The translations under genes were made by a program, and so were the position numbers. From contig JAKLFP010000002.1 of the NCBI GenBank assembly GCA_022711115.1, positions 207,674 to 271,673 on the forward strand: 64,000 nt of DNA, read 5' to 3'. Within the stretch, counting starts at the first letter, position 1, and every line of letters starts with the position of its first letter. This document shows positions 8,920-47,651 of the stretch, one piece after another. The stretch comes from Candidatus Omnitrophota bacterium (GTDB lineage Bacteria; Omnitrophota; Omnitrophia; Omnitrophales; Aquincolibacteriaceae). The notes beneath the pieces are model-generated. The model saw only the letters and a list, made by a program, of their open reading frames with translations. It was not told where the DNA came from and searched no databases.

Positions 8920-10472
8920 AACGCCTTGACCTTCTGATCGACAATATCACGCCCGATCACATCATTCGGCAAAACACCACCGGGCCGCACGATCTTCACC
9001 GTCAAAAAGATCAGAAGATCAGTTTTCTGTTTGCTATCGGTTTTTCTGTCAAACAGTTTTCCAAAAATCGGAATATTGCTAAGCCCAGGAACTCCGGTGG
9101 TCAAATCTTTCTTGGCATCCTTGAGCAGTCCGCCAAGCACAACGGTTTCCCCATCCTCGACCACCATCTGCGTCTCCGCCTCCCGGGTATTGATAATGGG
9201 ATATTGGGCAATAATGGGCGGCGTATCCCCTGCCGCCACAGGAGGCCCGTTGATATCAACGGTTTTCGTGTAATCGGAAACTGTCGGATGGACAATCAAA
9301 TTCACTTGATCCTCGTTATCACCGCAGATCTGCGGGACCACACGCAACTGGATCCCGATGTTTTGATAAAACGAGAGCGAACCACCCACCGTATTATCGG
9401 TATAAGTACTCGAGCTGGTTTCGATAATCGGAAACTGCTGGCCGACCAGGATCGTGGCCTCCCGCCCATCCATGGTAAGCACCGTAGGCGTTGAAAGCGT
9501 GTTGGTGTCGGCATCGGCCTGAAGCGCATGCAACACGGCGTCAAACTTTGTCCCATTGACCTTCATAAAATCCAATTTAAGACCCGATTTATAGGGATCC
9601 AGATCGATATTATCCGTCTGGAAAGCGGATGGTTTGGTCACTTCACTATAGCGGCTTGCAGCTCCTAGCTTGAAATCCTTATTTACAATAGACCCTGGCG
9701 TCGGGGTCGTATTAATCGTCCCAAAATCAAGACCGAGGTCAAACGCCTTGCCACGATTGACTTCCAGCATGATCGCCCGAATCAAAACCTGCTTCGGCGC
9801 AACATCCATCTCTGCAATAAGCTTAGCTACCTGACGCACCACCGCCGGCGTATCCGCAATCGCGAGGATCTTGGTCCGGGTCATTTTGTTCGTATTTTGA
9901 GTTGCCACCGGTTGGTTGTAGGTTCCCGAAGAATTGGACTGCACATTGATCATGCCGCTTGTGGTCGCGGAGAACCCCCAGCCCTGCTTGTTGACAACAT
10001 CCATCACGGAGATCTTCCCCTCCTTAGTCAGGAACGGCTGGATCATTTTTGCGGCATCCGCGGCTTCCACGTGTTTAAGCTTGAACGCTTCAATCTTCAT
10101 CCCCCCGGAAGCGAACAAGGCATCGTCTTCCTTTTTCTGGTCCTCCTGGATCTTGCTCAAGGCAGAGACGGTAATGACGGGACCGTCTTGCGTGTAACCG
10201 AGATCGTACATTTTAAGAATGACTTTAAGAGCCGTTTTCCAGTCCACCGCCTCCAGATCCACGGTGACAAGGCCATACACCTCCGGCGTCGCCACGATAT
10301 TGACCTTCTGACCTTCCTGCGCGGCTTTTTTCTCGATAGCTTTGAGTACGGTACCGATATCGGTATCTTTAAATCTCAGACTGCTCAGATCCTGCTTTGC
10401 GGCATGACCTAAAGATGATAGCGAAAACATAGTCACCATAAAAAACGCGGTGACAATGATCTTGACCTTCAT
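8916..10472 (-). CDS. pilQ: type IV pilus / T2SS secretin (PilQ/GspD family)
   Basis: A signal peptide is followed by a canonical secretin C-domain (VVLGGLLKD...TGVPGLSNIPIFGKLF...DLLIFLTVKIV). Confidence 0.9.
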   Translation of the reverse strand: MKVKIIVTAFFMVTMFSLSSLGHAAKQDLSSLRFKDTDIGTVLKAIEKKAAQEGQKVNIVATPEVYGLVTVDLEAVDWKTALKVILKMYDLGYTQDGPVITVSALSKIQEDQKKEDDALFASGGMKIEAFKLKHVEAADAAKMIQPFLTKEGKISVMDVVNKQGWGFSATTSGMINVQSNSSGTYNQPVATQNTNKMTRTKILAIADTPAVVRQVAKLIAEMDVAPKQVLIRAIMLEVNRGKAFDLGLDFGTINTTPTPGSIVNKDFKLGAASRYSEVTKPSAFQTDNIDLDPYKSGLKLDFMKVNGTKFDAVLHALQADADTNTLSTPTVLTMDGREATILVGQQFPIIETSSSTYTDNTVGGSLSFYQNIGIQLRVVPQICGDNEDQVNLIVHPTVSDYTKTVDINGPPVAAGDTPPIIAQYPIINTREAETQMVVEDGETVVLGGLLKDAKKDLTTGVPGLSNIPIFGKLFDRKTDSKQKTDLLIFLTVKIVRPGGVLPNDVIGRDIVDQKVKAL

Positions 10473-10547
10473 GACTCCTCCGTCCATGATGACCGTTCAG
10501 CCCTGTTTTTCGCATAGGCCAACAGCCTTGCATTGCAACCCATGAAT

Positions 10548-11027
10548 CTAATTTTTATGGGGTGCTAAATGCAATTCGAACTCCGAAACATTATCTTTCA
10601 GCCGGACACTGCCCGGTTGGATCTTGACGACCTGAAACTCGCCAAGGGCGTCTCCTTCGTTCAAAAAAATCCGGTTAATAATGACCGTCGGCTTTTGAGG
10701 ATCCCACATGATGCCCCCCAAAACCAAAGTTTGCCGCGAACCCATGGCATCCAGTCTCTTGCTCGCAAAAGGATCCCTTCCAACCGGTAATGCATCCACT
10801 ATGGCATTAAACCTGACAACAAAATTATCGTCTTTAACGTTCCTTCTCTTGACCTCCAAGAGAGAAGATTGTCGCGGAGTGCTCGGAACAGTTTCCGAGA
10901 TGATTTCTGCGACTGGCGCCGTACTTCGCGGTCCTTTGTTCTGCTGAAAAAGAGACCTAATCCCCCCAAAAAGCAAAATCACCAAAATGATGACAATGCC
11001 TAGCTCGATGATATCCTTGCGTCTCAT
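10548..11027 (-). CDS. PilP-like pilus assembly lipoprotein
   Basis: An N-terminal TM helix and a C-terminal beta-domain, positioned between pilO and pilQ. Confidence 0.5.
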   Translation of the reverse strand: MRRKDIIELGIVIILVILLFGGIRSLFQQNKGPRSTAPVAEIISETVPSTPRQSSLLEVKRRNVKDDNFVVRFNAIVDALPVGRDPFASKRLDAMGSRQTLVLGGIMWDPQKPTVIINRIFLNEGDALGEFQVVKIQPGSVRLKDNVSEFELHLAPHKN

Positions 11028-11617
11028 TTCGGCTCCAAAAGAAACAAGTTCAACTCCATCTGGATCTCCAGTCCTGGCACCGCCGGCAACACATCCGTTA
11101 TTTCCATTTTTTCGACAGTCAGATACGCCGGCAAAACCTTACGCAACGCTTCCAAATACTTGACCAGGTTCAGATAACCAGCCCTCATTTTCATGGCCAC
11201 TAAAACGGAAAGGCATGTCTTGCCCTCCACCACAACAGGGCGAGCAAGGCTGCCCTTAAAAATAACGGCAGGCTTCGCGCTGATCTTGTCTACATGAATT
11301 TGAAACTTACGCGCATAATCCGAAAGCATGACCAGTGATTTATGCTCATCATAAGGAAATTTTCGGGCAAGTTCTTTTTGTTCGCGAATGAAATAGGCCG
11401 CTACTTGGTCCGGATCTTTCACATGCTCAATCACCTGTCTCACCCATGACAATTGTTTCTTAAGGAAAAAATCCTGGGTCTTGACTGTTTCAAACGCAGT
11501 TTCCGCCGGCTGCAACGCAAAAACATAAAAGAGAACCACCGCGGCACAAAAAAGCACCCCCCACGCAACAATGATGACCTGCGCAAAAGTGATCTTGGGA
11601 CCTTGAACATTAATCAT
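11024..11617 (-). CDS. PilO/GspM-like inner-membrane assembly protein
   Basis: A single TM helix plus a periplasmic domain. Position within the operon supports the call. Confidence 0.55.
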   Translation of the reverse strand: MINVQGPKITFAQVIIVAWGVLFCAAVVLFYVFALQPAETAFETVKTQDFFLKKQLSWVRQVIEHVKDPDQVAAYFIREQKELARKFPYDEHKSLVMLSDYARKFQIHVDKISAKPAVIFKGSLARPVVVEGKTCLSVLVAMKMRAGYLNLVKYLEALRKVLPAYLTVEKMEITDVLPAVPGLEIQMELNLFLLEPK

Positions 11618-13199
11618 CTTTAAAAACCCCCTCGATACGAGACAAAGCCTCGGATTCCCCGAAAACAGGAGAAGAAGAAACCTTATCAAAAAAAGATGTC
11701 CCTCTCAATCTTGAAACAAAATCATCGACTACTTCGGCGCTTTGGATCCTTGAAAGCTCGATGGCGACCTCCAGAACGACCCTCTTTAAAGCAGCATCCA
11801 AAAAGAATTTCTTTATGACCATTTGCTCCGGCAACAAATACCCCAGCAGCTTCAAAACTTTTTCAGCCGGAACGGTCCCTCGTTCGATCTCCGAAACCAA
11901 GAAATGACGGGGAAAGGCCTTGCTGGAAAGCTCTGCAAAATTTCCCAATGTCTTAAGATGTCTTTCATCCATAGCGACATATTGCGCGTAATAAGCGGTC
12001 TGAAGCTTTACGAAGAAGAAAGACATCGCAAAAAACCCCGTCAGCCCCACTGTCAAAAGCAAAAGAATCTTTCGCTGAAATGCCTCAAATCTACGGCTTC
12101 TGAATTCAAACGGAAGAAAATTAACAGCTTCTTGCCCGGCAAAAACTCCCGCGACGCCGCTGACAAACTGACTCGTCTGAAAACTGTCACGTCCACCTTC
12201 CGCGGTCGGTCCTTTTTGATTTTGAATTTTGGCCGGAAGAAACAGATTGTGAACATTCATCCCGAGCCCCCGGCCAAGAAAGACATCCAGATTTTTGAAG
12301 GTCGCTCCGTGTCCCGTTAAAAAAAGTTTGGTGGGCGCAGTTTCCTTCCACCGGGTTTCATAATAGGAAAAAGAATAACGCATCTCCCGAACGAGTCCTT
12401 CCAAAAGAGGACGGATCAAGGCATAGAACTTTCCGATCCGGCTTGCTCCGTCTAAAACGGCGGTTTCTTCATCCGGAACGCCGTACATCTGAAGCACCTG
12501 CTCGACTTTTTGATCGGCAGCTTCTCCCTGTGTCTGAGATTCAAGAAATAAAGGATCGTTTAAACATTGTTTGATCTTGGCGAATGAAAAAGCCAGATCT
12601 CGGAAAAAGATCAACTGATTGCGTTTGTAAATCGCCAAGGTCGAATGATTATACCCGACATCCAGCAGGGCCTGGGTTTCGGCAGTCTCGCCCAACCAAG
12701 CAAGCATCTTCGGATAATCCAGCGGTGCAGCGGTCACCCGTTCGATATCAAAACCGGCTCGGGTCAGCACTAAAAGAAGGGATTGCAGGAGTTTCTGCTG
12801 TACTGTCGCATAGACCACAGCGCACTTTTGGGCCTGATCATCGTCTGTGAATTCTTTGACCACCTGATAATTAAAAAGCACTTGCGCTTGGCTCTTGGGA
12901 TCTTCATCTCTCGCATGCCAGGTCAGCGCCTGGACAAGTTCCTTGGCGGGCATCATGGGAAGGATGACGTTTTTGATCATGATGACGTTCGGGTCATAGA
13001 TCGTGACAAATACCTTGCGAGAAGAGATCCGATGCTGCCTTACAAACAACAGCATAGCTTCCCGAAGATTGACTTTGATATCTTCTTGACTAGGAAGGAC
13101 ATGCGTCATTTCCTGCGAGATCGTTACCTGGTCCTTTTCTTTTTGCAAAAGCAAGATCTTGACCCTGTGCTTTCCGATCTCAACGGCTAAAAACGACAT
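11610..13199 (-). CDS. fused PilM (actin-like ATPase fold) - PilN protein (GspL-like)
   Basis: An N-terminal PilM-like region of roughly 350 aa is followed by a TM helix (ILLLLTVGLTGFFAMSFFFV) and then a PilN-like periplasmic domain. Confidence 0.7.
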   Translation of the reverse strand: MSFLAVEIGKHRVKILLLQKEKDQVTISQEMTHVLPSQEDIKVNLREAMLLFVRQHRISSRKVFVTIYDPNVIMIKNVILPMMPAKELVQALTWHARDEDPKSQAQVLFNYQVVKEFTDDDQAQKCAVVYATVQQKLLQSLLLVLTRAGFDIERVTAAPLDYPKMLAWLGETAETQALLDVGYNHSTLAIYKRNQLIFFRDLAFSFAKIKQCLNDPLFLESQTQGEAADQKVEQVLQMYGVPDEETAVLDGASRIGKFYALIRPLLEGLVREMRYSFSYYETRWKETAPTKLFLTGHGATFKNLDVFLGRGLGMNVHNLFLPAKIQNQKGPTAEGGRDSFQTSQFVSGVAGVFAGQEAVNFLPFEFRSRRFEAFQRKILLLLTVGLTGFFAMSFFFVKLQTAYYAQYVAMDERHLKTLGNFAELSSKAFPRHFLVSEIERGTVPAEKVLKLLGYLLPEQMVIKKFFLDAALKRVVLEVAIELSRIQSAEVVDDFVSRLRGTSFFDKVSSSPVFGESEALSRIEGVFKDD

Positions 13200-13227
13200 G
13201 GGGTGTTTTGACTTTCTTATTTTAGTT

Positions 13228-13779
13228 TTAGATGTACTTGTTCACTTGAACGGAAGAGCTCTGCTGACTCATCCCCTCTAGATTATCGGAAGAACCCGTG
13301 CCGTTTTGAGCTATTAAATTGATCGCGATGCGCCGGACATCGGCCGCCGTATTCGTCACGGCTTCATTAGCGTCATAATATGTGAATAAAGCCCCGCTAA
13401 CGCCTGCAAGGACCATGTCCGATGCCGCCCCGTCGGGGACAAGAGCCTCCGCTCCGGTATCGATCTTGCGATAAAGTTTCCCAAGACCCACATCAAGACG
13501 GTAGGATATGGTGTGGTCATCCTGGTTGGTAACAATGATTTGATTGGGACTTGCCGTCGTCACGGCTTTGCTGAACCTTAACCCCTTCGCCAGCACATCT
13601 CCTTCGATCATGGTTTCCATGGCGCTGGCGGCCGTAAGATCCGCATTGACCTGGCTGGGTAAATAAAATGTATTATTGATTACAAACTTTGAGATGTGGA
13701 GCGATCCCACGGTCAGGAGTGCGATGATCAAAATCGTCATCACGACTTCAAGGATTGTAAACCCTTTAGCGTGTTTCAT
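13228..13779 (-). CDS. prepilin-type N-terminal cleavage/methylation domain protein (minor pilin)
   Basis: The N-terminus reads KGFTILEVVMTILIIALL. Confidence 0.75.
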   Translation of the reverse strand: MKHAKGFTILEVVMTILIIALLTVGSLHISKFVINNTFYLPSQVNADLTAASAMETMIEGDVLAKGLRFSKAVTTASPNQIIVTNQDDHTISYRLDVGLGKLYRKIDTGAEALVPDGAASDMVLAGVSGALFTYYDANEAVTNTAADVRRIAINLIAQNGTGSSDNLEGMSQQSSSVQVNKYI

Positions 13780-14159
13780 AAACCGTGCGTCACATCTTTT
13801 GTGATGGAACCATAAAGCGTCACTATATCCGTTGCCGACCCGGTCCGTTTGGCAGTCAAGGTAATGTCTTTTCTCTCCGCACCCCCGCCCCCCACCACCG
13901 TTGCCACAGTCCAGGTCACCGTATAGGAACCGTCTACAGAACTTCCGTTTGCAAGAGAACCATACGGAATATTATGCAATCTTTCCATTGCTTGGCGCGC
14001 CAAGTTGCCGGATGCCGTAAAATCAGTCGAGGTCATCATGCCCTGGATCTGTGAGCCGATCATGGAAGCCATCGGGATGGCGACCAAAGCCAAAATAACT
14101 GCCGCCATAATCAGTTCAATCAGCGTCACACCCTTGGAGAAATTATGGTTTCGTCGCAT
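13776..14159 (-). CDS. prepilin-type minor pilin
   Basis: The N-terminus reads SKGVTLIELIMAAVILALV. The start was chosen at MRRNH. Confidence 0.65.
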   Translation of the reverse strand: MRRNHNFSKGVTLIELIMAAVILALVAIPMASMIGSQIQGMMTSTDFTASGNLARQAMERLHNIPYGSLANGSSVDGSYTVTWTVATVVGGGGAERKDITLTAKRTGSATDIVTLYGSITKDVTHGL

Positions 14160-15207
14160 TGTAATAATCCAGAATCTCTTGAGCGGTCTTTTGACAGGCA
14201 TAGATATAAGCCTCATCGATCGTTCCGATAAATCGTGTCGTAGCACTATTGGTCGCCCGTGTCCCGATCTGTAAATTCCCGGCGGTCGCCCTTGCTACCC
14301 GGACTGTGGCATCAAAATTGACCGGATTACCATTCAAATAAAGACGCATGCCGGTCGCGCCCCAAGTTCCTGCGACGTGATACCAAGTGTTGAGTGCGAG
14401 ATTAGTATTTTCAGTCACACTTCGTTCGACACCTCCGGCATCGCGCAGTAAAATGCGAATACGACGGTTCGCTCCTGTTCGATTGATGACAAGCCCATAG
14501 GCTTCATCGTTGGAGTTGGATAAATTCCCTTTATGCACAATGCCTGCATTATTATTAACTTGAGCTGTAATATAAATCCACGCCATGATCGATCCAGAGG
14601 TCGTCAAATCAAGCCCATTGGCATCGGGAACAGTGACATAGTTATGCGTCGCTCCCTGGTTAAACCTTAACGCGGTTCCAATACGCCCTGCAACCCATGC
14701 GGGGCCTGTCGCATTGGAAGGGGTCAGCGTTCCCACATAGGGAGCGGTCCCTGTGGTAAAACCCGCTCCTTCGCTAAAAGGCCACCAGATTTGATCGCAA
14801 CAGACGGGCGGCGGGATGCCCGTACCCTCTCCTTCAAGATAAAGGGTTATTTTTGTCGCAGAATGATCGTATTGGGCAAAAACCGTACGAGATATCGAAT
14901 TACCCGAAGCAACTGAAGTCCCTATCGATTTGAGTTGATAAATATTCGAGCACTGGGCTACCACGGTAACCACAATTTGATTATTGGCATCCCAATTCGT
15001 GACAGGAAGCGGCGTCCCCGTCGACTTGATGTTGAAAATGGCTTTGTGAATCCCAGACTCGGCGAGATACAGGGCCTTCATACTGCGCGTCTGGGCATCA
15101 TAGCGGGTGATACTGCTTGTAATAAAAAAGGTGGTCCCGAAGACAATGATAGGGACAAGGATGATAATGATCAAAACGGTCATGAGAGCAAATCCCCTGC
15201 TCTTCAA
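14143..15207 (-). CDS. PilX/GspK-like minor pilin with a C-terminal LamG/concanavalin-like domain
   Basis: The N-terminus MKSRGFALMTVLIIIIL has no Glu5. A PilX_N-like ALYLAESG motif is present. The C-terminal region resembles a LamG jelly-roll (NGNPVNF...IDEAYIYA). Confidence 0.6.
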   Translation of the reverse strand: MKSRGFALMTVLIIIILVPIIVFGTTFFITSSITRYDAQTRSMKALYLAESGIHKAIFNIKSTGTPLPVTNWDANNQIVVTVVAQCSNIYQLKSIGTSVASGNSISRTVFAQYDHSATKITLYLEGEGTGIPPPVCCDQIWWPFSEGAGFTTGTAPYVGTLTPSNATGPAWVAGRIGTALRFNQGATHNYVTVPDANGLDLTTSGSIMAWIYITAQVNNNAGIVHKGNLSNSNDEAYGLVINRTGANRRIRILLRDAGGVERSVTENTNLALNTWYHVAGTWGATGMRLYLNGNPVNFDATVRVARATAGNLQIGTRATNSATTRFIGTIDEAYIYACQKTAQEILDYYNATKP

Positions 15208-15282
15208 AAATCCTCCCTTGAAAAATGAAGGGATGGCGCTTTTAAAAGCGCCATCCCATAACGTTAAAATGGTCTAAAATAC

Positions 15283-42247: not shown

Positions 42248-43267
42248 TTATACGACCCGGTCCTTGCCTTCATATTTGGCTCGATACAAAGCTGCATCGG
42301 CTTTTCGGACCAGTTCCTCCCAGGAATCACAGTCCAATGGAAATTCGGAAACCCCGATGGATACGGTCAGCCTGCCCTGAGGTTGTTCTTCTTTATGGGC
42401 AAAGGGGAAATTCCGCACATCATTCAATATTCTCTTCGCCCTGACATAGGCCCCTGCCTTAGGTGTTTCGGGAAGAATAATCACAAACTCCTCGCCGCCA
42501 TATCTGGCCACCATATCATTGCTCTTCGCTGCCTGGGCGGGATTTGCAAGACGCGTCGACCGTGATGTTTTGGAAAACAGATCTGCCAATTGTTTCAAAA
42601 GGATATTTCCTTCTTCATGTCCGTTCTTGTCATTGTAGTGCTTGAAGTTATCAATATCGATAAAAAGCAGGGACACCTGATAATTGTATTTCCTGGCCCT
42701 GCCGATTTCATCAATCAAAGTCTCTTCAAAAAAGCGGTAATTATATAACCCGGTCAGGCTGTCTTTAACCACCAGCGATTCAAGCTTCTTTGTTTCAAAG
42801 TAAAGAGTCCGGACCCGTTCCTCTCCCGATTGATCAAGCACCCCTCTGATAAAACTCAGCTCACTGCTTAAATCAACGATTGTTTTTTCTACCGCCTGCA
42901 TATGAAAGCGAATCAGATCCCGGATCGAAAGGATCCCGAGTAAAACGTCATTTTCCACAATCGGCAAGTGACGGATGGCGCGCGCTCTCATCAGACTATA
43001 GACTTGTTCACAACTGGCTTTGGTCGTCACTGTCAATAATTCCGAGGTCATAACCTCTTTGACCAAAGTTTTCGAGACATCCCGTCCCTCGGCCCCCACT
43101 CGATTTACCAAATCCCGCTCCGTGAAAACCCCCAAAGGTTTCTTCTTATCCGCGATGACCACACAACCAATATTATGTTTTTTCATGATGAGACACGCAT
43201 CGTATACCGTCTGATCCGGGCTAATGGTTTTAACGTCTTTGATCATCCACTGTGACACAAGATTCAT
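42248..43267 (-). CDS. CBS-pair / GGDEF diguanylate cyclase
   Basis: Two CBS motifs followed by GGDEF with an intact RYGGEEF. Confidence 0.8.
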   Translation of the reverse strand: MNLVSQWMIKDVKTISPDQTVYDACLIMKKHNIGCVVIADKKKPLGVFTERDLVNRVGAEGRDVSKTLVKEVMTSELLTVTTKASCEQVYSLMRARAIRHLPIVENDVLLGILSIRDLIRFHMQAVEKTIVDLSSELSFIRGVLDQSGEERVRTLYFETKKLESLVVKDSLTGLYNYRFFEETLIDEIGRARKYNYQVSLLFIDIDNFKHYNDKNGHEEGNILLKQLADLFSKTSRSTRLANPAQAAKSNDMVARYGGEEFVIILPETPKAGAYVRAKRILNDVRNFPFAHKEEQPQGRLTVSIGVSEFPLDCDSWEELVRKADAALYRAKYEGKDRVV

Positions 43268-43558
43268 GATGCTTGCTCCTCCAAAAAATCCTAACTATTG
43301 CATGTCATTAAGCACTACTACCGCTCTTCGGCAGGACAGGTTAAATCGCTTACAAGCACTTGGGATATACCATAATCCTTATCCCTTGCCAAGCTTTTCC
43401 CACAAAACTAAGCCACTTCTTTTATTGCAAATTTTGTTCGAGAAATAAAACAACTTGTTTATGTATACGGCCATTCCCAACTTTAATTAATCATATTTTA
43501 TCCGCGACAGCATAACACAGGATTGTTTAATTCTACAGGTATTGGCGGCAGTTTTTGA

Positions 43559-44281
43559 TCACTCACGAATTTGAAAGGATGCAAAAAGAGATTGAAGAGT
43601 CGAACGGAGTCCGGCAGAAATGATGGGCGTTTGGGCATAGCTTTCACGAAGTTCTTTGTCATGGCAATGTTCACCGCGAAATGATTGAAGCGTGAAGTTC
43701 TTGCAGCCCATTCCTGCCAATTCGCGTGCCATCTCAAGAATTTCCATTTCGGTAAGAAGGTCTGGATGAATGGTCGTCCGAAATTCATAAGGCTTGTTGC
43801 TCGCAAGCACCAGGGAGGCACTCTGACGCGCCGCATCACCGCTTGCTGGAATTCGGGTCACTTTCTCATACAAGCTGAATGGAACCTTGATATCCATCCC
43901 GACCCAATCACAAAGAGGAAGGACTCCCGACAACCGGTCAGGGAAAATACCTCCCGTATGAAGTCCTATTTCGTATCCCATGTCCTTAACAGCTTTGATC
44001 CAGGCAGAAAGCTGCAAATGGACGGTGGGTTCTCCTCCCGAAAAGACAATGCCGTCGAGATGTCCCTTGCGCGAGGTAAGGTAGTGTCTGATTTTTTCAA
44101 CAGGAATATGCGTTCCGTAAGGCGGGAGCGGCCAGAATTCCGAGTTGTAACAATAACGGCAACGCCAAGCACAACCCTGAAGATAGAAAACCCCGGCCAG
44201 ACGGCCGGGGAAATCTATGGTTGTAAAGGGCGTAATACCCGCAACACAAATATCGTCAAGATTACATGCACCGTTTCTCAT
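43559..44281 (-). CDS. nrdG: anaerobic ribonucleoside-triphosphate reductase activating protein (radical SAM)
   Basis: CAWRCRYC. Confidence 0.8.
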   Translation of the reverse strand: MRNGACNLDDICVAGITPFTTIDFPGRLAGVFYLQGCAWRCRYCYNSEFWPLPPYGTHIPVEKIRHYLTSRKGHLDGIVFSGGEPTVHLQLSAWIKAVKDMGYEIGLHTGGIFPDRLSGVLPLCDWVGMDIKVPFSLYEKVTRIPASGDAARQSASLVLASNKPYEFRTTIHPDLLTEMEILEMARELAGMGCKNFTLQSFRGEHCHDKELRESYAQTPIISAGLRSTLQSLFASFQIRE

Positions 44282-44342
44282 TTGTCTTTATAGGTGAACG
44301 GTGCAAGCACTGCGAACCCTAAAAATTAATAGCAACGCAGTG

Positions 44343-44516
44343 CTAGGCGCATTCACACCCGGCTTCTTTGGGCTCGGCAAAATATTTACGTTCATCGAAT
44401 TCGCCCTTTTTCCCCACATTAAAACCGGAAACAGGCCTGTGATACCCCATCACACGTGTCCATACCTCACAACGCGTTCTTTCTTCATCTTTTAAAATGG
44501 CGCTCTCTTTATTCAT
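44343..44516 (-). CDS. NrdD glycyl-radical C-terminal segment encoded as a separate 57-codon ORF
   Basis: Minus-strand translation gives MNKESAILKDEERTRCEVWTRVMGYHRPVSGFNVGKKGEFDERKYF.... This matches the class III RNR glycyl-radical motif RVxGY...WN.GK..E. It is in frame with the large nrdD ORF but separated from it by TAA. An AAGGAG RBS overlaps that stop. Confidence 0.6.
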   Translation of the reverse strand: MNKESAILKDEERTRCEVWTRVMGYHRPVSGFNVGKKGEFDERKYFAEPKEAGCECA

Positions 44517-44525
44517 TTTTTCTCC

Positions 44526-46595
44526 TTATTTCTGAATCTCCTGCACCTGCGTCTCACCCGCAGTGATGTTTGAACTATGATGCTCATAAAGCAATTTTGC
44601 CTGAATCAATTCCTGATCGCACTTGGGACAAAATTCGTGTTCTCCGGGAAGATAACTATGCTTCGGACAAATCGAAAAAGTCGGTGTGACCGTCACGTAA
44701 GGGATCCGATACCCCTCCAAAGCCCTTTTGACAAGCTTCTTGCAGGCCTCCGAACTTGAAATACGCTCCCCCATGTAAAGATGCAGCACGGTGCCACCGG
44801 TATAGCGGCGCTGAAGCGACTCTTGCCGCTCCAAGGCTTCAAACGGATCATCCGTGAAAGCCACGGGAAGTTGCGATGAGTTCGTGTAATAAGGCCTTTC
44901 ATCCGTTCCCGCATGCAAGATATCGGGAAAACGCTTGATGTCTTCCTTGGCAAACCGGTAGGTCGCTCCTTCAGCAGGTGTCGCTTCGAGGTTATACAAG
45001 TGCCCCGTTTCTTCCTGGAAGGAAGTAATCCGTTCTCGGATAAAATCCAGCAGTTTCACCGCGAATTCAAAACCAGCAGGGGTGGTCACATTTTCTTTAC
45101 CGCTTGTGAAATTCCGGATGCATTCATTGATCCCATTCACACCGATCGTGGAAAAATGATTCCGCAACGTTCCCAGATAACGCTTTGTATACGGGAAAAG
45201 TCCTGCGTCCATATGGCGTTGAATGATCTTGCGCTTAATTTCAAGACTTGTCTTAGCGACCTGCAGGAGGGCATCGACCCGCTTTAAAAAGGCGCTTTCA
45301 TCTCCCTTGGCGAGGTACCCGATGCGTGCACAATTGATCGTCACCACTCCCAAGGAGCCCGTCTGCTCCGCGGAACCAAAAAGACCGTTCCCGCGCTTTA
45401 AAAGTTCCCGAAGATCCAGTTGCAAACGGCAGCACATGGAACGAATCTGGTTTGGCTTGAGATCTGAATTGAGAAAATTTTGAAAATACGGAAGACCATA
45501 CTTCGCCGTCATCTCAAAGAGAGGATCACAATTCGGATGGTCCCAATCGAAGTCCGGCGTGATGTTATAGGTCGGGATCGGGAAAGTAAACACGCGCCCC
45601 TTAGCATCCCCTCGCATCATCACCTCGATATAGGCTTTATTGATCATGGCCATTTCTTCTTGAAGCTCACCGTAGGTAAACTCCATCTCTTTACCACCCA
45701 CGATCGGATGTTCGCTTCGCAAATCTTCAGGACAAACCCAGTCAAAAGTCACATTCGTAAAAGGAGTTTGCGTTCCCCACCGCGAAGGCACATTGAGGTT
45801 GTAAATAAATTCCTGTATGGATTGTTTCACGTCCTCGTAAGGAAGATTATCAATGCGAATATAAGGCGCAAGATAGGTGTCAAAGGAAGAAAACGCCTGG
45901 GCGCCTGCCCACTCATTTTGCAGGGTCCCGAGAAAATTTACCATTTGTCCGACGGCGGAAGAGAGATGTTTCGGAGGAGCGGATTCGATCTTATCGGGAA
46001 CACCGTTGAACCCTTCGCGAAGAAGTGTCTTAAGAGACCACCCGGCACAATATCCGGAAAGCATATCAAGGTCATGAATATGAATGTCCCCATGACGATG
46101 GGCATTACTTACTTCTTCCGGATACACGTGCGAGAGCCAATAGTTTGCAATCACCTTCCCGGAAATATTGAGAATCATCCCGCCTAACGAGTAACCCTGA
46201 TTCGCGTTCGCGTTCACGCGCCAATCCAGCTTATAGAGATATTCGTTCACCGAAGATGTCACATCGACAACTGTCTTTTGATCTTTCCGCAATTTCTTGT
46301 GCTGCTCGCGGTAAACAATGTAAGCGCGCGCTGTCTTGAGATGATTCGAGGAGATAAGGACTTGCTCAACAATATCTTGGATTTTTTCGATATCGAGAAA
46401 TCCGGAAGCATAACGGTTATCAATAACTTTTATAACTTCTAATGTTAGCAGGTGAGCCTCGGCCCCATCATATTCCCCAGTCGCCTGCCCCGCTTTAAGA
46501 ATCGCGTTATAAATCTTGGCTCCATCAAAAGAAACGATTGAGCCGTCACGCTTGCGGATGCTGGTGATCTTTTTGGAAAGGAATTGTTCGGCCAT
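44526..46595 (-). CDS. nrdD: anaerobic ribonucleoside-triphosphate reductase, large part (ATP-cone ... Zn ribbon). It lacks the Gly-radical motif.
   Basis: It has an N-terminal ATP cone and a C-terminal CPKH...CPKC zinc ribbon. The ORF ends at TAA 3 codons before the ATG of the Gly-radical ORF. Confidence 0.8.
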   Translation of the reverse strand: MAEQFLSKKITSIRKRDGSIVSFDGAKIYNAILKAGQATGEYDGAEAHLLTLEVIKVIDNRYASGFLDIEKIQDIVEQVLISSNHLKTARAYIVYREQHKKLRKDQKTVVDVTSSVNEYLYKLDWRVNANANQGYSLGGMILNISGKVIANYWLSHVYPEEVSNAHRHGDIHIHDLDMLSGYCAGWSLKTLLREGFNGVPDKIESAPPKHLSSAVGQMVNFLGTLQNEWAGAQAFSSFDTYLAPYIRIDNLPYEDVKQSIQEFIYNLNVPSRWGTQTPFTNVTFDWVCPEDLRSEHPIVGGKEMEFTYGELQEEMAMINKAYIEVMMRGDAKGRVFTFPIPTYNITPDFDWDHPNCDPLFEMTAKYGLPYFQNFLNSDLKPNQIRSMCCRLQLDLRELLKRGNGLFGSAEQTGSLGVVTINCARIGYLAKGDESAFLKRVDALLQVAKTSLEIKRKIIQRHMDAGLFPYTKRYLGTLRNHFSTIGVNGINECIRNFTSGKENVTTPAGFEFAVKLLDFIRERITSFQEETGHLYNLEATPAEGATYRFAKEDIKRFPDILHAGTDERPYYTNSSQLPVAFTDDPFEALERQESLQRRYTGGTVLHLYMGERISSSEACKKLVKRALEGYRIPYVTVTPTFSICPKHSYLPGEHEFCPKCDQELIQAKLLYEHHSSNITAGETQVQEIQK

Positions 46596-46937
46596 GCATA
46601 CTCCCCTTTCTGTGATTAACCTATCGGCAAATTCGCCAGATATTGTAGTTTTATTTTAATGCTTACACCATATCTAGTATTCAATGCGGTCAAAGAGCAA
46701 TTCTTTTAAAACTGGATTTTTAATTTAAAGATTTGTTTGGAATGTTTTGATGCGGTGCTTTTAAAAAAAGTCTGTCGTTGAAAAAAATAAATTAAAAATG
46801 GCACCGAATTATTGCATTTCCAAAACCGCGTGAAATAATATTCCTCAAAAACAAAAGTTGCAACAAGAATTTTTAACTTTTTTTCGAAAAAAATTTTGAC
46901 GGGGAGAGAAAAATATTTATTTGAAAAAAGTTCTTGA

Positions 46938-47651
46938 TTAATACTTGGTTTCAGCTTTTTTGCGGATCATCTCCACAAGCACTCCAGCAATTTCATCCAT
47001 CGAAACACGATCCGTATTCCAAATGGCGTCATAAAGCAATGGATCATGAATATCTTTAGAAAAAAATGTTTTCACAAGTTCGGCTTTCGCTTTATCTTTT
47101 TCCGCAATCGCTTGGCGCGCTTCTTTCTCACTGATCTGCAAGGCCTGCATCATCCTTTTGATGCGCGAGTCAAGAGAAGCAACGAGCCTGATATGAATCC
47201 CTAAAGGAAGATCGTGCGTCAGAAGAGCCGAACCGCGGCCAACAAAGACTACTTTGCCATAAATAGCAAAGGCGCGCATCATGTGGAACATTTTTTTGAT
47301 GACAACATCCTGAGAAGACACGCCAAAAACAAGCTGCCCGATGAAATCTTCCGCGTGAGAATGATATTCCGTTTTCAAGAGCGATTCGACAGATGATTTT
47401 AATGCCGGATCCTGTGCAACAATATGGCAAATTTCCTGATTGCAAAGCTGCCAGCCGCAAAAGAGAGGCTCTTGATTCAGCTTTTGGATTTTTTCGTAAA
47501 GAATTTTAGCAAGAGATTGGCCTCCCGCGCCGGCAAGGCGGGAAATGGTTATAAAGGGGAAATTTCTTTTTTTTGAATTTACTTGCGAAGGTTCGTGCTC
47601 GTAGTAAAGAAGACTATCAACAAAAGATTTCAGCTTCTGGATTTCACTCAT
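46938..47651 (-). CDS. cytidylate kinase-like family protein
   Basis: ITISRLAGAGGQSLAK, an atypical P-loop of the cytidylate-kinase-like family. Confidence 0.5.
   Translation of the reverse strand: MSEIQKLKSFVDSLLYYEHEPSQVNSKKRNFPFITISRLAGAGGQSLAKILYEKIQKLNQEPLFCGWQLCNQEICHIVAQDPALKSSVESLLKTEYHSHAEDFIGQLVFGVSSQDVVIKKMFHMMRAFAIYGKVVFVGRGSALLTHDLPLGIHIRLVASLDSRIKRMMQALQISEKEARQAIAEKDKAKAELVKTFFSKDIHDPLLYDAIWNTDRVSMDEIAGVLVEMIRKKAETKY

Follow-up and report, generated by a model that had tools for sequence, protein, structure and literature searches.

A class III ribonucleotide reductase apparently divided between a catalytic body and a separately encoded glycyl-radical peptide

The 64,000-nucleotide stretch of Candidatus Omnitrophota DNA analysed here (contig JAKLFP010000002.1, positions 207,674 to 271,673; hereafter the window) carries three consecutive open reading frames (ORFs) of 689, 57 and 240 amino acids (aa) on its minus strand at 43559-46595. 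They encode, in that order, the body of an anaerobic (class III) ribonucleotide reductase (RNR), NrdD; a small peptide bearing the glycyl-radical motif; and the activase NrdG. We consider it very probable that this locus specifies an obligate two-polypeptide class III RNR, in which a 689-aa body would be supplied in trans with its radical domain by the 57-aa peptide. The elements concerned are the following.

44526..46595, minus strand: nrdD large subunit ORF (stop codon included), 689 aa, 78.2 kDa
44526..44528, minus strand: TAA stop codon of the large ORF, the same in 8 independent assemblies; the equivalent stop of relatives is TAA, TAG or TGA
44522..44527, minus strand: Shine-Dalgarno (SD) sequence AAGGAG, overlapping the large-ORF stop, 5 nt before the ATG
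44343..44516, minus strand: small subunit ORF, predicted glycyl-radical peptide, 57 aa, 6.6 kDa
44445..44447, minus strand: codon of Gly24, the predicted radical site (RVMG*Y), aligning to the RIVGY glycine of Thermotoga maritima NrdD
43559..44281, minus strand: nrdG radical-SAM activase, 240 aa, matching TIGR02495, PF04055 and PF13353

The junction between the first two ORFs reads CAG AAA TAA GGA GAA AAA ATG AAT, with five A's separating AAGGAG from the ATG. An earlier note on this DNA had described a 689-aa nrdD that ends at a TAA after its zinc ribbon, and an AAGGAG that overlaps this stop 5 nt before the ATG of a 57-aa ORF; both are present as described. It had also placed the radical motif three codons downstream of the stop. 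The small-ORF ATG (44516-44514) does lie three codons (9 nt) past the TAA, in frame, but the motif begins 19 codons inside the ORF. Directly downstream of the small ORF, nrdG scores 171 bits against the NrdG2 model TIGR02495 (cut-off 131 bits).

The large ORF is matched by the NrdD models NF006126 (1142.4 bits, cut-off 548), TIGR02487 (490.9 bits, cut-off 326) and PF13597 (597.9 bits, cut-off 26.2), and by the ATP-cone family PF03477 (79.9 bits). Within it we located these features.

46293..46562, minus strand: ATP-cone domain, residues 12-101 (PF03477, E = 2.1e-22)
45426..45437, minus strand: MCCR motif, residues 387-390, from sequence position
45372-45386, minus strand: GLFGS finger-loop motif, residues 404-408, from sequence position
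44619..44669, minus strand: zinc ribbon CPKH...CPKC, residues 643-659, aligning to C..H..CPVC of T. maritima NrdD (4COI)
44529..44618, minus strand: 30-residue C-terminal tail (DQELIQAKLL...) between the zinc ribbon and the TAA

The combination of MCCR with a Phe finger residue is the signature of the NrdDh4 group (Aurelius 2015, PMC4493059), which the window's large ORF matches in this respect. Its zinc ribbon reads CPKHSYLPGEHEFCPKC, with all four candidate ligands inside the large ORF, and the PDB profile alignment of the large ORF stops at this ribbon. The glycyl-radical motif RVxGY was not found in the 689-aa ORF and lies instead on the adjoining 57-aa ORF. The Pfam family NRDD (PF13597, 562 positions) is shared out between the two, positions 2-529 falling in the large ORF and 532-562 in the small one. 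By these predictions the window has all the parts of an NrdD, spread over two chains. The nearest relatives of the locus are Candidatus Omnitrophota metagenome-assembled genomes (MAGs; 89-91% protein identity).

The small ORF contains TRVMGYHRP, with residue 24 as the predicted radical glycine, in a core that reads CEVWTRVMGYHRP...FN.GK..E..ER..F. PF13597 is its sole Pfam match at E <= 0.01 (E = 5e-8; 32.5 bits, above the cut-off of 26.2), and as a profile match it is far beyond chance. The ORF reaches the cut-off of no NCBIfam model, so that a model made for it apparently does not exist. When the peptide was searched against a protein database, 5,362 proteins matched at E <= 1e-3, and the top 120 were all 51-100 aa long. 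Across an alignment of 76 stand-alone homologues, 17 residues are invariant (R13, C16, E17, W19, R21, V22, M23, G24, Y25, H26, R27, P28, N33, G35, K36, E39 and R43). Comparison of the window with close relatives over a 43-codon core gave 0.02-0.07 nonsynonymous substitutions per site (dN), with synonymous substitutions (dS) at 1.7-2.2 or saturated, and a dN/dS of 0.02-0.04 where it was computable. Judged by these substitution rates, the small ORF is under strong purifying selection.

To place the break in the fold, we aligned a profile of fused homologues to T. maritima NrdD (4COI), which gave ...C-EDG-H...CPVC-GKA-KVDEYMRIVGYLVPVSAFN.... In this alignment the zinc ribbon falls in the large ORF and RIVGY...FN in the small ORF; the break therefore sits between the zinc ribbon and the radical loop. 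The radical loop aligned to the PDB only with this profile: a PDB search with the small ORF alone found no NrdD match, and one with a 126-residue junction fragment returned no NrdD match and two unrelated hits at chance level. A bridging of the zinc site by Cys16 of the CEVW motif was considered and rejected, given that the C, H, C and C ligands all lie in the large ORF and that the T. maritima equivalent of Cys16 is Asp. Although invariant among the stand-alone homologues, Cys16 is, from these alignments, unlikely to be a universal zinc ligand.

The linkers between ribbon and CEVW in fused relatives span 3-47 residues and are of two kinds. Short linkers of 3-8 residues occur in Desulfovibrionales, Geobacter and one Myxococcales MAG; the remaining fused relatives have long linkers of 14-47 residues. 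Several of the long linkers retain the 'CDxE(L/I)(L/I)..K' tail and the 'L(K/R)DEER..C' head of the split form, and the 30-residue tail of the window's large subunit has no counterpart in short-linker homologues. In a neighbour-joining tree of 120 large-subunit regions, the short-linker forms stand together in leaf order, and the long-linker fused and split forms interleave. From this tree, whose sample is biased by the fused query, the split or fused state appears to have switched at least five times. An AlphaFold2 model of P0186, a long-linker fused homologue that is 70% identical to a synthetic large-plus-small fusion query, has a pLDDT of 77 and a pTM of 0.75. It predicts a helix at residues 661-674 right after the ribbon, in the segment equivalent to the tail, a beta-hairpin at 694-705 around the glycine, and a helix at 711-719. 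Confidence is low at the glycine itself, and the model agrees with the class III RNRs of solved structure, which are single chains throughout. Given linkers of 3-47 residues, at least five switches of state and the P0186 model, we conclude that the structure tolerates the split.

Could the TAA have arisen in sequencing or assembly, or be a nonsense mutation that recently inactivated the gene, so that nrdD is in truth intact or a pseudogene? The earlier note had raised this possibility. A lone in-frame stop 9 nt before an in-frame continuation resembles a point mutation, and fused nrdD homologues exist. However, the exact 57-aa protein is present on 14 contigs examined, and eight places from different samples and assemblers (ENA, JGI, Logan) are 100% identical over 810-858 nt including the junction. 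The closest large-subunit homologues (P0121-P0153; 85-93% identity) are 677-688 aa long and likewise lack the radical motif. We then scanned in all frames 80 genome loci encoding proteins 71-91% identical to the large subunit, together with two plasmid records and the window itself, and obtained 84 locus rows. Whether orthologues are split or contiguous, a comparison that the earlier note had proposed, is answered by these rows: 75 are split, 5 are fused and 4 are unresolved at contig ends or masked bases. The split rows use all three stop codons, all frames and varied spacers, and each has a start codon and an SD-like motif of its own for the small ORF. Together with the agreement of the assemblies, the persistence of the split across phyla and the selection on the small ORF lead us to reject an error or pseudogene, which we regard as extremely unlikely. 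The same layout bears out the other suggestion of that note, a separately translated 57-aa radical peptide.

Among the split rows are Omnitrophota, alpha-, beta- and gammaproteobacteria, Elusimicrobiota, Acidobacteriota, Actinomycetota and Coriobacteriia. Cultured strains with the split type include Noviherbaspirillum sp. ST 5-3 (complete genome), Thiocapsa roseopersicina DSM 217, Afifella pfennigii DSM 17143, Rhodovulum kholense DSM 19783, Thiohalocapsa marina DSM 19078 and Bradyrhizobium liaoningense NBRC 100396. Among plasmid records the peptide occurs in 133 from Ralstonia, and also in Cupriavidus, Paracoccus, Bradyrhizobium and others. Taken as a whole, the comparison describes a large, cross-phylum variant of class III RNR that is predicted to consist of two polypeptides.

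Over the 74 distinct split loci, a hand count of the frame offset from stop to start gave 24, 25 and 25 for 0, +1 and +2. Spacers extend from an overlap (-32 nt) to +270 nt, with overlapping ORFs in 16 loci. The chosen small-ORF start is ATG in all but two split rows. Every split locus has an SD-like motif ahead of this start, 4-6 nt long and ranging from AAGG or GGAG to the full AAGGAG; our script preferred starts with such a motif, so that its universality is partly by construction. Since frame and spacer vary across split loci, the small ORF behaves as an independently initiated gene. The seven Omnitrophota loci themselves differ, with L001, L004 and L006 out of frame and L002, L003 and L005 in frame. 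Because the three frames are used equally, the 9-nt in-frame layout of the window is coincidental rather than a recoding signal. The in-frame split that the earlier note had stressed is thus real here but incidental.

These counts also bear on stop-codon readthrough or recoding, by which the two ORFs would be fused into a 749-aa single-chain NrdD as the active form here. The ORFs are in frame and just three codons apart, and a long-linker fused homologue of similar length exists (P0176, 749 aa). Against this, the frame relation is not kept even among close Omnitrophota relatives, the ORFs overlap in the 16 loci mentioned, and a strong SD and an ATG stand exactly where independent initiation needs them. 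An E-value scan of 43000-47500 found no Rfam family at its gathering score, although no search was aimed at readthrough-stimulating elements. We reject readthrough as a conserved mechanism on the frame statistics and hold it to be very unlikely as the source of the active enzyme in the window.

Protein splicing was considered as well. Rejoining of the halves after translation by a split intein, or by some other protein ligation, has in its favour that inteins are common in the family: large subunits of relatives carry one to three (P0200; P0328-P0406). However, neither ORF of the window contains an intein or Hint domain, on which ground we reject this explanation, and the flanks of 30 and 15 residues are poorly conserved and were judged too short for intein halves. 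Its probability is next to nil. As a separate observation, the relative P0200 has a large subunit of 1012 aa that contains a LAGLIDADG (PF14528) intein and lacks the radical motif; inteins and the split therefore co-occur in the NrdD family.

One split-type locus lies on a plasmid of a cultured strain. In pHG1 of Cupriavidus necator H16, the small ORF follows a 142-nt spacer with AAGGAG, and AAGAAGGAG lies upstream of its ATG. RefSeq has three coding sequences (CDSs) here (L081 1277-4353): one of 676 aa named 'ribonucleoside triphosphate reductase', one of 66 aa named 'nrdD' (H16_RS32675), and that of the activase; elsewhere the small CDS is usually labelled 'anaerobic ribonucleoside-triphosphate reductase'. 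The computed mass of the 676-aa large ORF is 76.19 kDa. A 1999 study reportedly gave the NrdD mass as 76.2 kDa in its abstract. If that figure is right, the 66-aa ORF seems to have been overlooked at the time. A split-type locus works in vivo, namely nrdDG of pHG1: the genome paper, which cites Siedow 1999, describes it as essential for complete denitrification and for good growth on nitrate. The same paper lists NrdDG of C. metallidurans as Rmet_5137 and Rmet_5139, skipping 5138.

A Geobacteraceae MAG (L033 6098-7774) departs from the usual arrangement. It has a full small ORF, then a 312-aa ORF, then a second copy of the small ORF that is 5'-truncated and overlaps nrdG. The C-terminus of the 312-aa ORF (VPEPSS...RRRKS) is PEP-CTERM-like, as judged by eye, and the whole suggests an insertion in which the 3' part of the small ORF was duplicated.

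We propose the following mechanism for the two-polypeptide enzyme. The body would provide the ATP-cone, the catalytic barrel with the MCCR and finger-loop cysteines, and a complete Cys-His-Cys-Cys zinc ribbon. The peptide would be translated from its own AAGGAG and ATG sitting on the large-ORF stop, by ribosomes that either initiate de novo or re-initiate after termination; both routes are plausible, and initiation at this place would tend towards near-equimolar synthesis. NrdG and S-adenosylmethionine would then abstract a hydrogen atom from Gly24 of the peptide. The peptide would dock in the barrel at the site that the C-terminal radical domain occupies in a single-chain NrdD and hand the radical to the finger-loop cysteine (MCCR/GLFGS region).

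Single-chain NrdDs (bacteriophage T4, 1H78; T. maritima, 4COI and 4U3E; Prevotella copri, 8P23; Streptococcus thermophilus, 9D3X) match the same family profiles, and they share with the locus in the window an ATP-cone, a barrel, finger-loop cysteines, a zinc ribbon, RVxGY and an adjacent radical-SAM activase. In every solved or characterised NrdD that we found, the radical glycine lies about 13-16 residues past the last zinc-ribbon cysteine of the same chain, whereas in the window a second gene product of 57 aa carries it, and the break is flanked by a tail of 30 residues and a head of 15.

The earlier note had likened the peptide to GrcA (YfiD), the spare part of pyruvate formate-lyase (PFL). 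The likeness holds in that both, like T4 Y06I, are small stand-alone polypeptides with a radical glycine, and that phage-encoded copies exist for both. By analogy, both would be radicalised by the activase of the partner and inserted in a barrel that lacks a working radical domain. Taken literally, the comparison would make the small ORF a GrcA/YfiD-type accessory that repairs an oxygen-damaged enzyme and is not an obligate subunit. A small stand-alone protein with an RVxGY motif adjoining an activase gene fits such a role, as do the orphan copies carried by prophages, which parallel the YfiD homologue Y06I carried by T4. However, GrcA supplements a PFL that has its own radical domain, whereas the large ORF here has no such domain to repair, and the peptide is its sole one. 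GrcA is about 127 aa long and homologous to the C-terminus of PFL; the 57-aa peptide is a fragment of NrdD (PF13597), not a PFL-type Gly_radical domain, and it fills the exact place of the missing C-terminus. Given that the large subunit lacks a radical domain, the peptide would be an obligate subunit, and a purely accessory part is very unlikely at this locus. The spare-part idea may still hold for the orphan phage copies described below.

Why an enzyme should be divided in this way might be explained by oxygen, which cleaves glycyl-radical enzymes at the radical glycine (a 2026 review and another paper). Since cleavage occurs at this residue, a replaceable 6.6-kDa module would be cheap to renew: damage would cost a 6.6-kDa cartridge and not a 78-kDa enzyme, and a free peptide might be easier for the activase to reach.

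Several points weigh against the two-polypeptide account and its rationale. The case that the peptide is made, radicalised and bound is entirely one of comparative genomics. Some readthrough to the 749-aa fused protein may take place, the ORFs being in frame. The structure of the peptide alone is predicted at low confidence (pLDDT 56.6, pTM 0.26), which is compatible with folding on docking but proves nothing. Finally, the advantage of a cartridge is speculation, and split forms are found also in lineages taken as strict anaerobes.

Viral relatives of the peptide were surveyed in the best 80 of 200 IMG/VR matches, in flanks of up to 10 kb either way, many contigs ending earlier. All 80 are stand-alone small ORFs (50-66 aa; L171-L247). 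Within these limits an NrdD barrel is encoded at 2 of the 80 loci and absent from the other 78, and an NrdG-like protein was found at none. At both barrel-bearing loci (L181 and L182, contigs of about 174 kb and 38 kb), 2.7 kb separate the small ORF from a downstream large subunit of 801 aa, which contains a mini-intein and lacks the radical motif (within 9992-15261). Relatives of this large subunit have from zero to several inteins and lengths of 659-1380 aa.

Seven viral peptides were looked up by exact sequence; three fall in clusters named for Parasutterella and two in clusters of Caudoviricetes MAGs, one of these with Duodenibacillus members. In prophage-type loci the small gene lies between the lysis cassette and attP/integrase, and at the Parasutterella-type loci it follows genes for holin, lysozyme and DUF1643 and precedes tRNA-Leu and the integrase. 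In a Parasutterella genome it stands at the junction of prophage and host. A native split operon is present on gut Sutterellaceae-type contigs (L253 3001-6097), with a 669-aa large subunit, a 67-nt spacer, a 62-aa small subunit and a 246-aa NrdG; the nearest named relative of this large subunit is that of Candidatus Sutterella merdavium. These contigs would represent likely hosts of the prophages with orphan small ORFs. The prophage copies are 56-66% identical to the Sutterellaceae-type small subunit, and around the motif they agree with the conserved core of the stand-alone peptides. A search of the GenBank phage collection with the prophage peptide gave no match.

By analogy with GrcA, the orphan phage genes may be spare or booster radical modules. 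In the fullest form of this idea, the split is adaptive: the peptide would be a replaceable cartridge, radicalised while free by NrdG and swapped after oxygen damage, and temperate phages of gut Sutterellaceae would exploit it, the small gene alone boosting or repairing the class III RNR of the host as a lysogenic-conversion or auxiliary gene. The viral and Sutterellaceae-type loci just described are compatible with this idea. We put it forward tentatively, as an extension of the two-polypeptide reading that we hold to be less likely than not.

Divided RNRs have precedents of other kinds. The split class II enzyme NrdJa/NrdJb (Pseudomonas aeruginosa, Crona 2015; Thermus phage phiYS40) likewise places a catalytic RNR on two consecutive ORFs, with a C-terminal functional module on the second polypeptide. 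It differs in class and in its adenosylcobalamin cofactor, and NrdJb is a large folded domain, IscU-like with a zinc finger, that serves re-reduction and does not bear the radical. Phage RNR genes are also found in pieces (the T4 nrdD intron, Aeh1 nrdA, phiAS4 nrdD), and a survey of phage RNRs names nrdD as the RNR gene interrupted most often. Those splits stem from introns, inteins or homing endonucleases, or are isolated events, whereas the break in the window is without a mobile element and is conserved across phyla.

In the literature that we consulted (among others the RNRdb papers, the T. maritima and P. copri structures, two large RNR phylogenies and the phage RNR survey), we met neither an NrdD encoded by two genes nor a free-standing radical peptide of NrdD. 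The arrangement is apparently undescribed, though an earlier mention is possible. One of the large phylogenies dropped sequences shorter than 400 residues, which would have hidden the small subunit from it. According to the 2026 review, radical spare parts are known only for formate-lyases, and whether other glycyl-radical enzymes have them is an open question.

Glycyl-radical enzymes are described as single chains with a C-terminal radical domain, GrcA of PFL being the known exception. If the two-polypeptide reading is true, the split NrdD would offer a natural system in which to study access of an activase to its glycine and the docking and exchange of a radical module. It may also explain how an oxygen-sensitive enzyme is kept running in facultative anaerobes and microaerophiles such as denitrifiers and sulfur-oxidising symbionts. 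It would bear on model organisms and pathogens for which the usual tally is of 'nrdD' and 'nrdG' only, among them C. necator, Ralstonia solanacearum, Paracoccus and Bradyrhizobium, and would reveal a gap in how such genes are annotated and surveyed. The copies that phages carry as orphans would form a new kind of auxiliary metabolic gene.

Further features of the locus are the following.

46665..46680, minus strand: conserved palindrome-like box 1, ATACTAGATATGGTGT, from the aligned upstream regions of 8 Omnitrophota nrdD genes
46635..46650, minus strand: conserved box 2, AACTACAATATCTGGC, about 31 nt from box 1 and followed by an invariant GCCGAT, from the same 8 upstream regions
44306..44344, minus strand: stem-loop with a 9-bp stem, beginning in the small-ORF stop codon, in the 61-nt gap before nrdG
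44349..44357, minus strand: C-terminal CxC (GCECA) of the small subunit; GCGCS in relatives and KKCCCRK in prophage copies

In the eight aligned Omnitrophota upstream regions, CTACAATAT is invariant in 8/8. Boxes 1 and 2 look like tandem operators and resemble the NrdR box consensus, which makes them candidate NrdR sites. A pattern built from that consensus had no match at the locus, and the boxes were seen only in the alignment. RNA folding of the 83-nt stretch 44270-44352, which contains the stem-loop, gave -24.6 kcal/mol (z = -2.37), with 1 of 200 shuffles as stable; the stem-loop could set the NrdD:NrdG expression ratio.

A cysteine pair or cluster also ends many other small subunits (L001-L009, L171-L247), although it is not universal in the family. 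By analogy, these C-terminal pairs recall the redox-shuttle cysteines of class I and II RNRs. Within the 5' part of the nrdG coding sequence, a terminator-like element at 44191-44210 (minus strand) combines 8 G-C pairs with a following T-run, in codons for FPGRLAGVFY.

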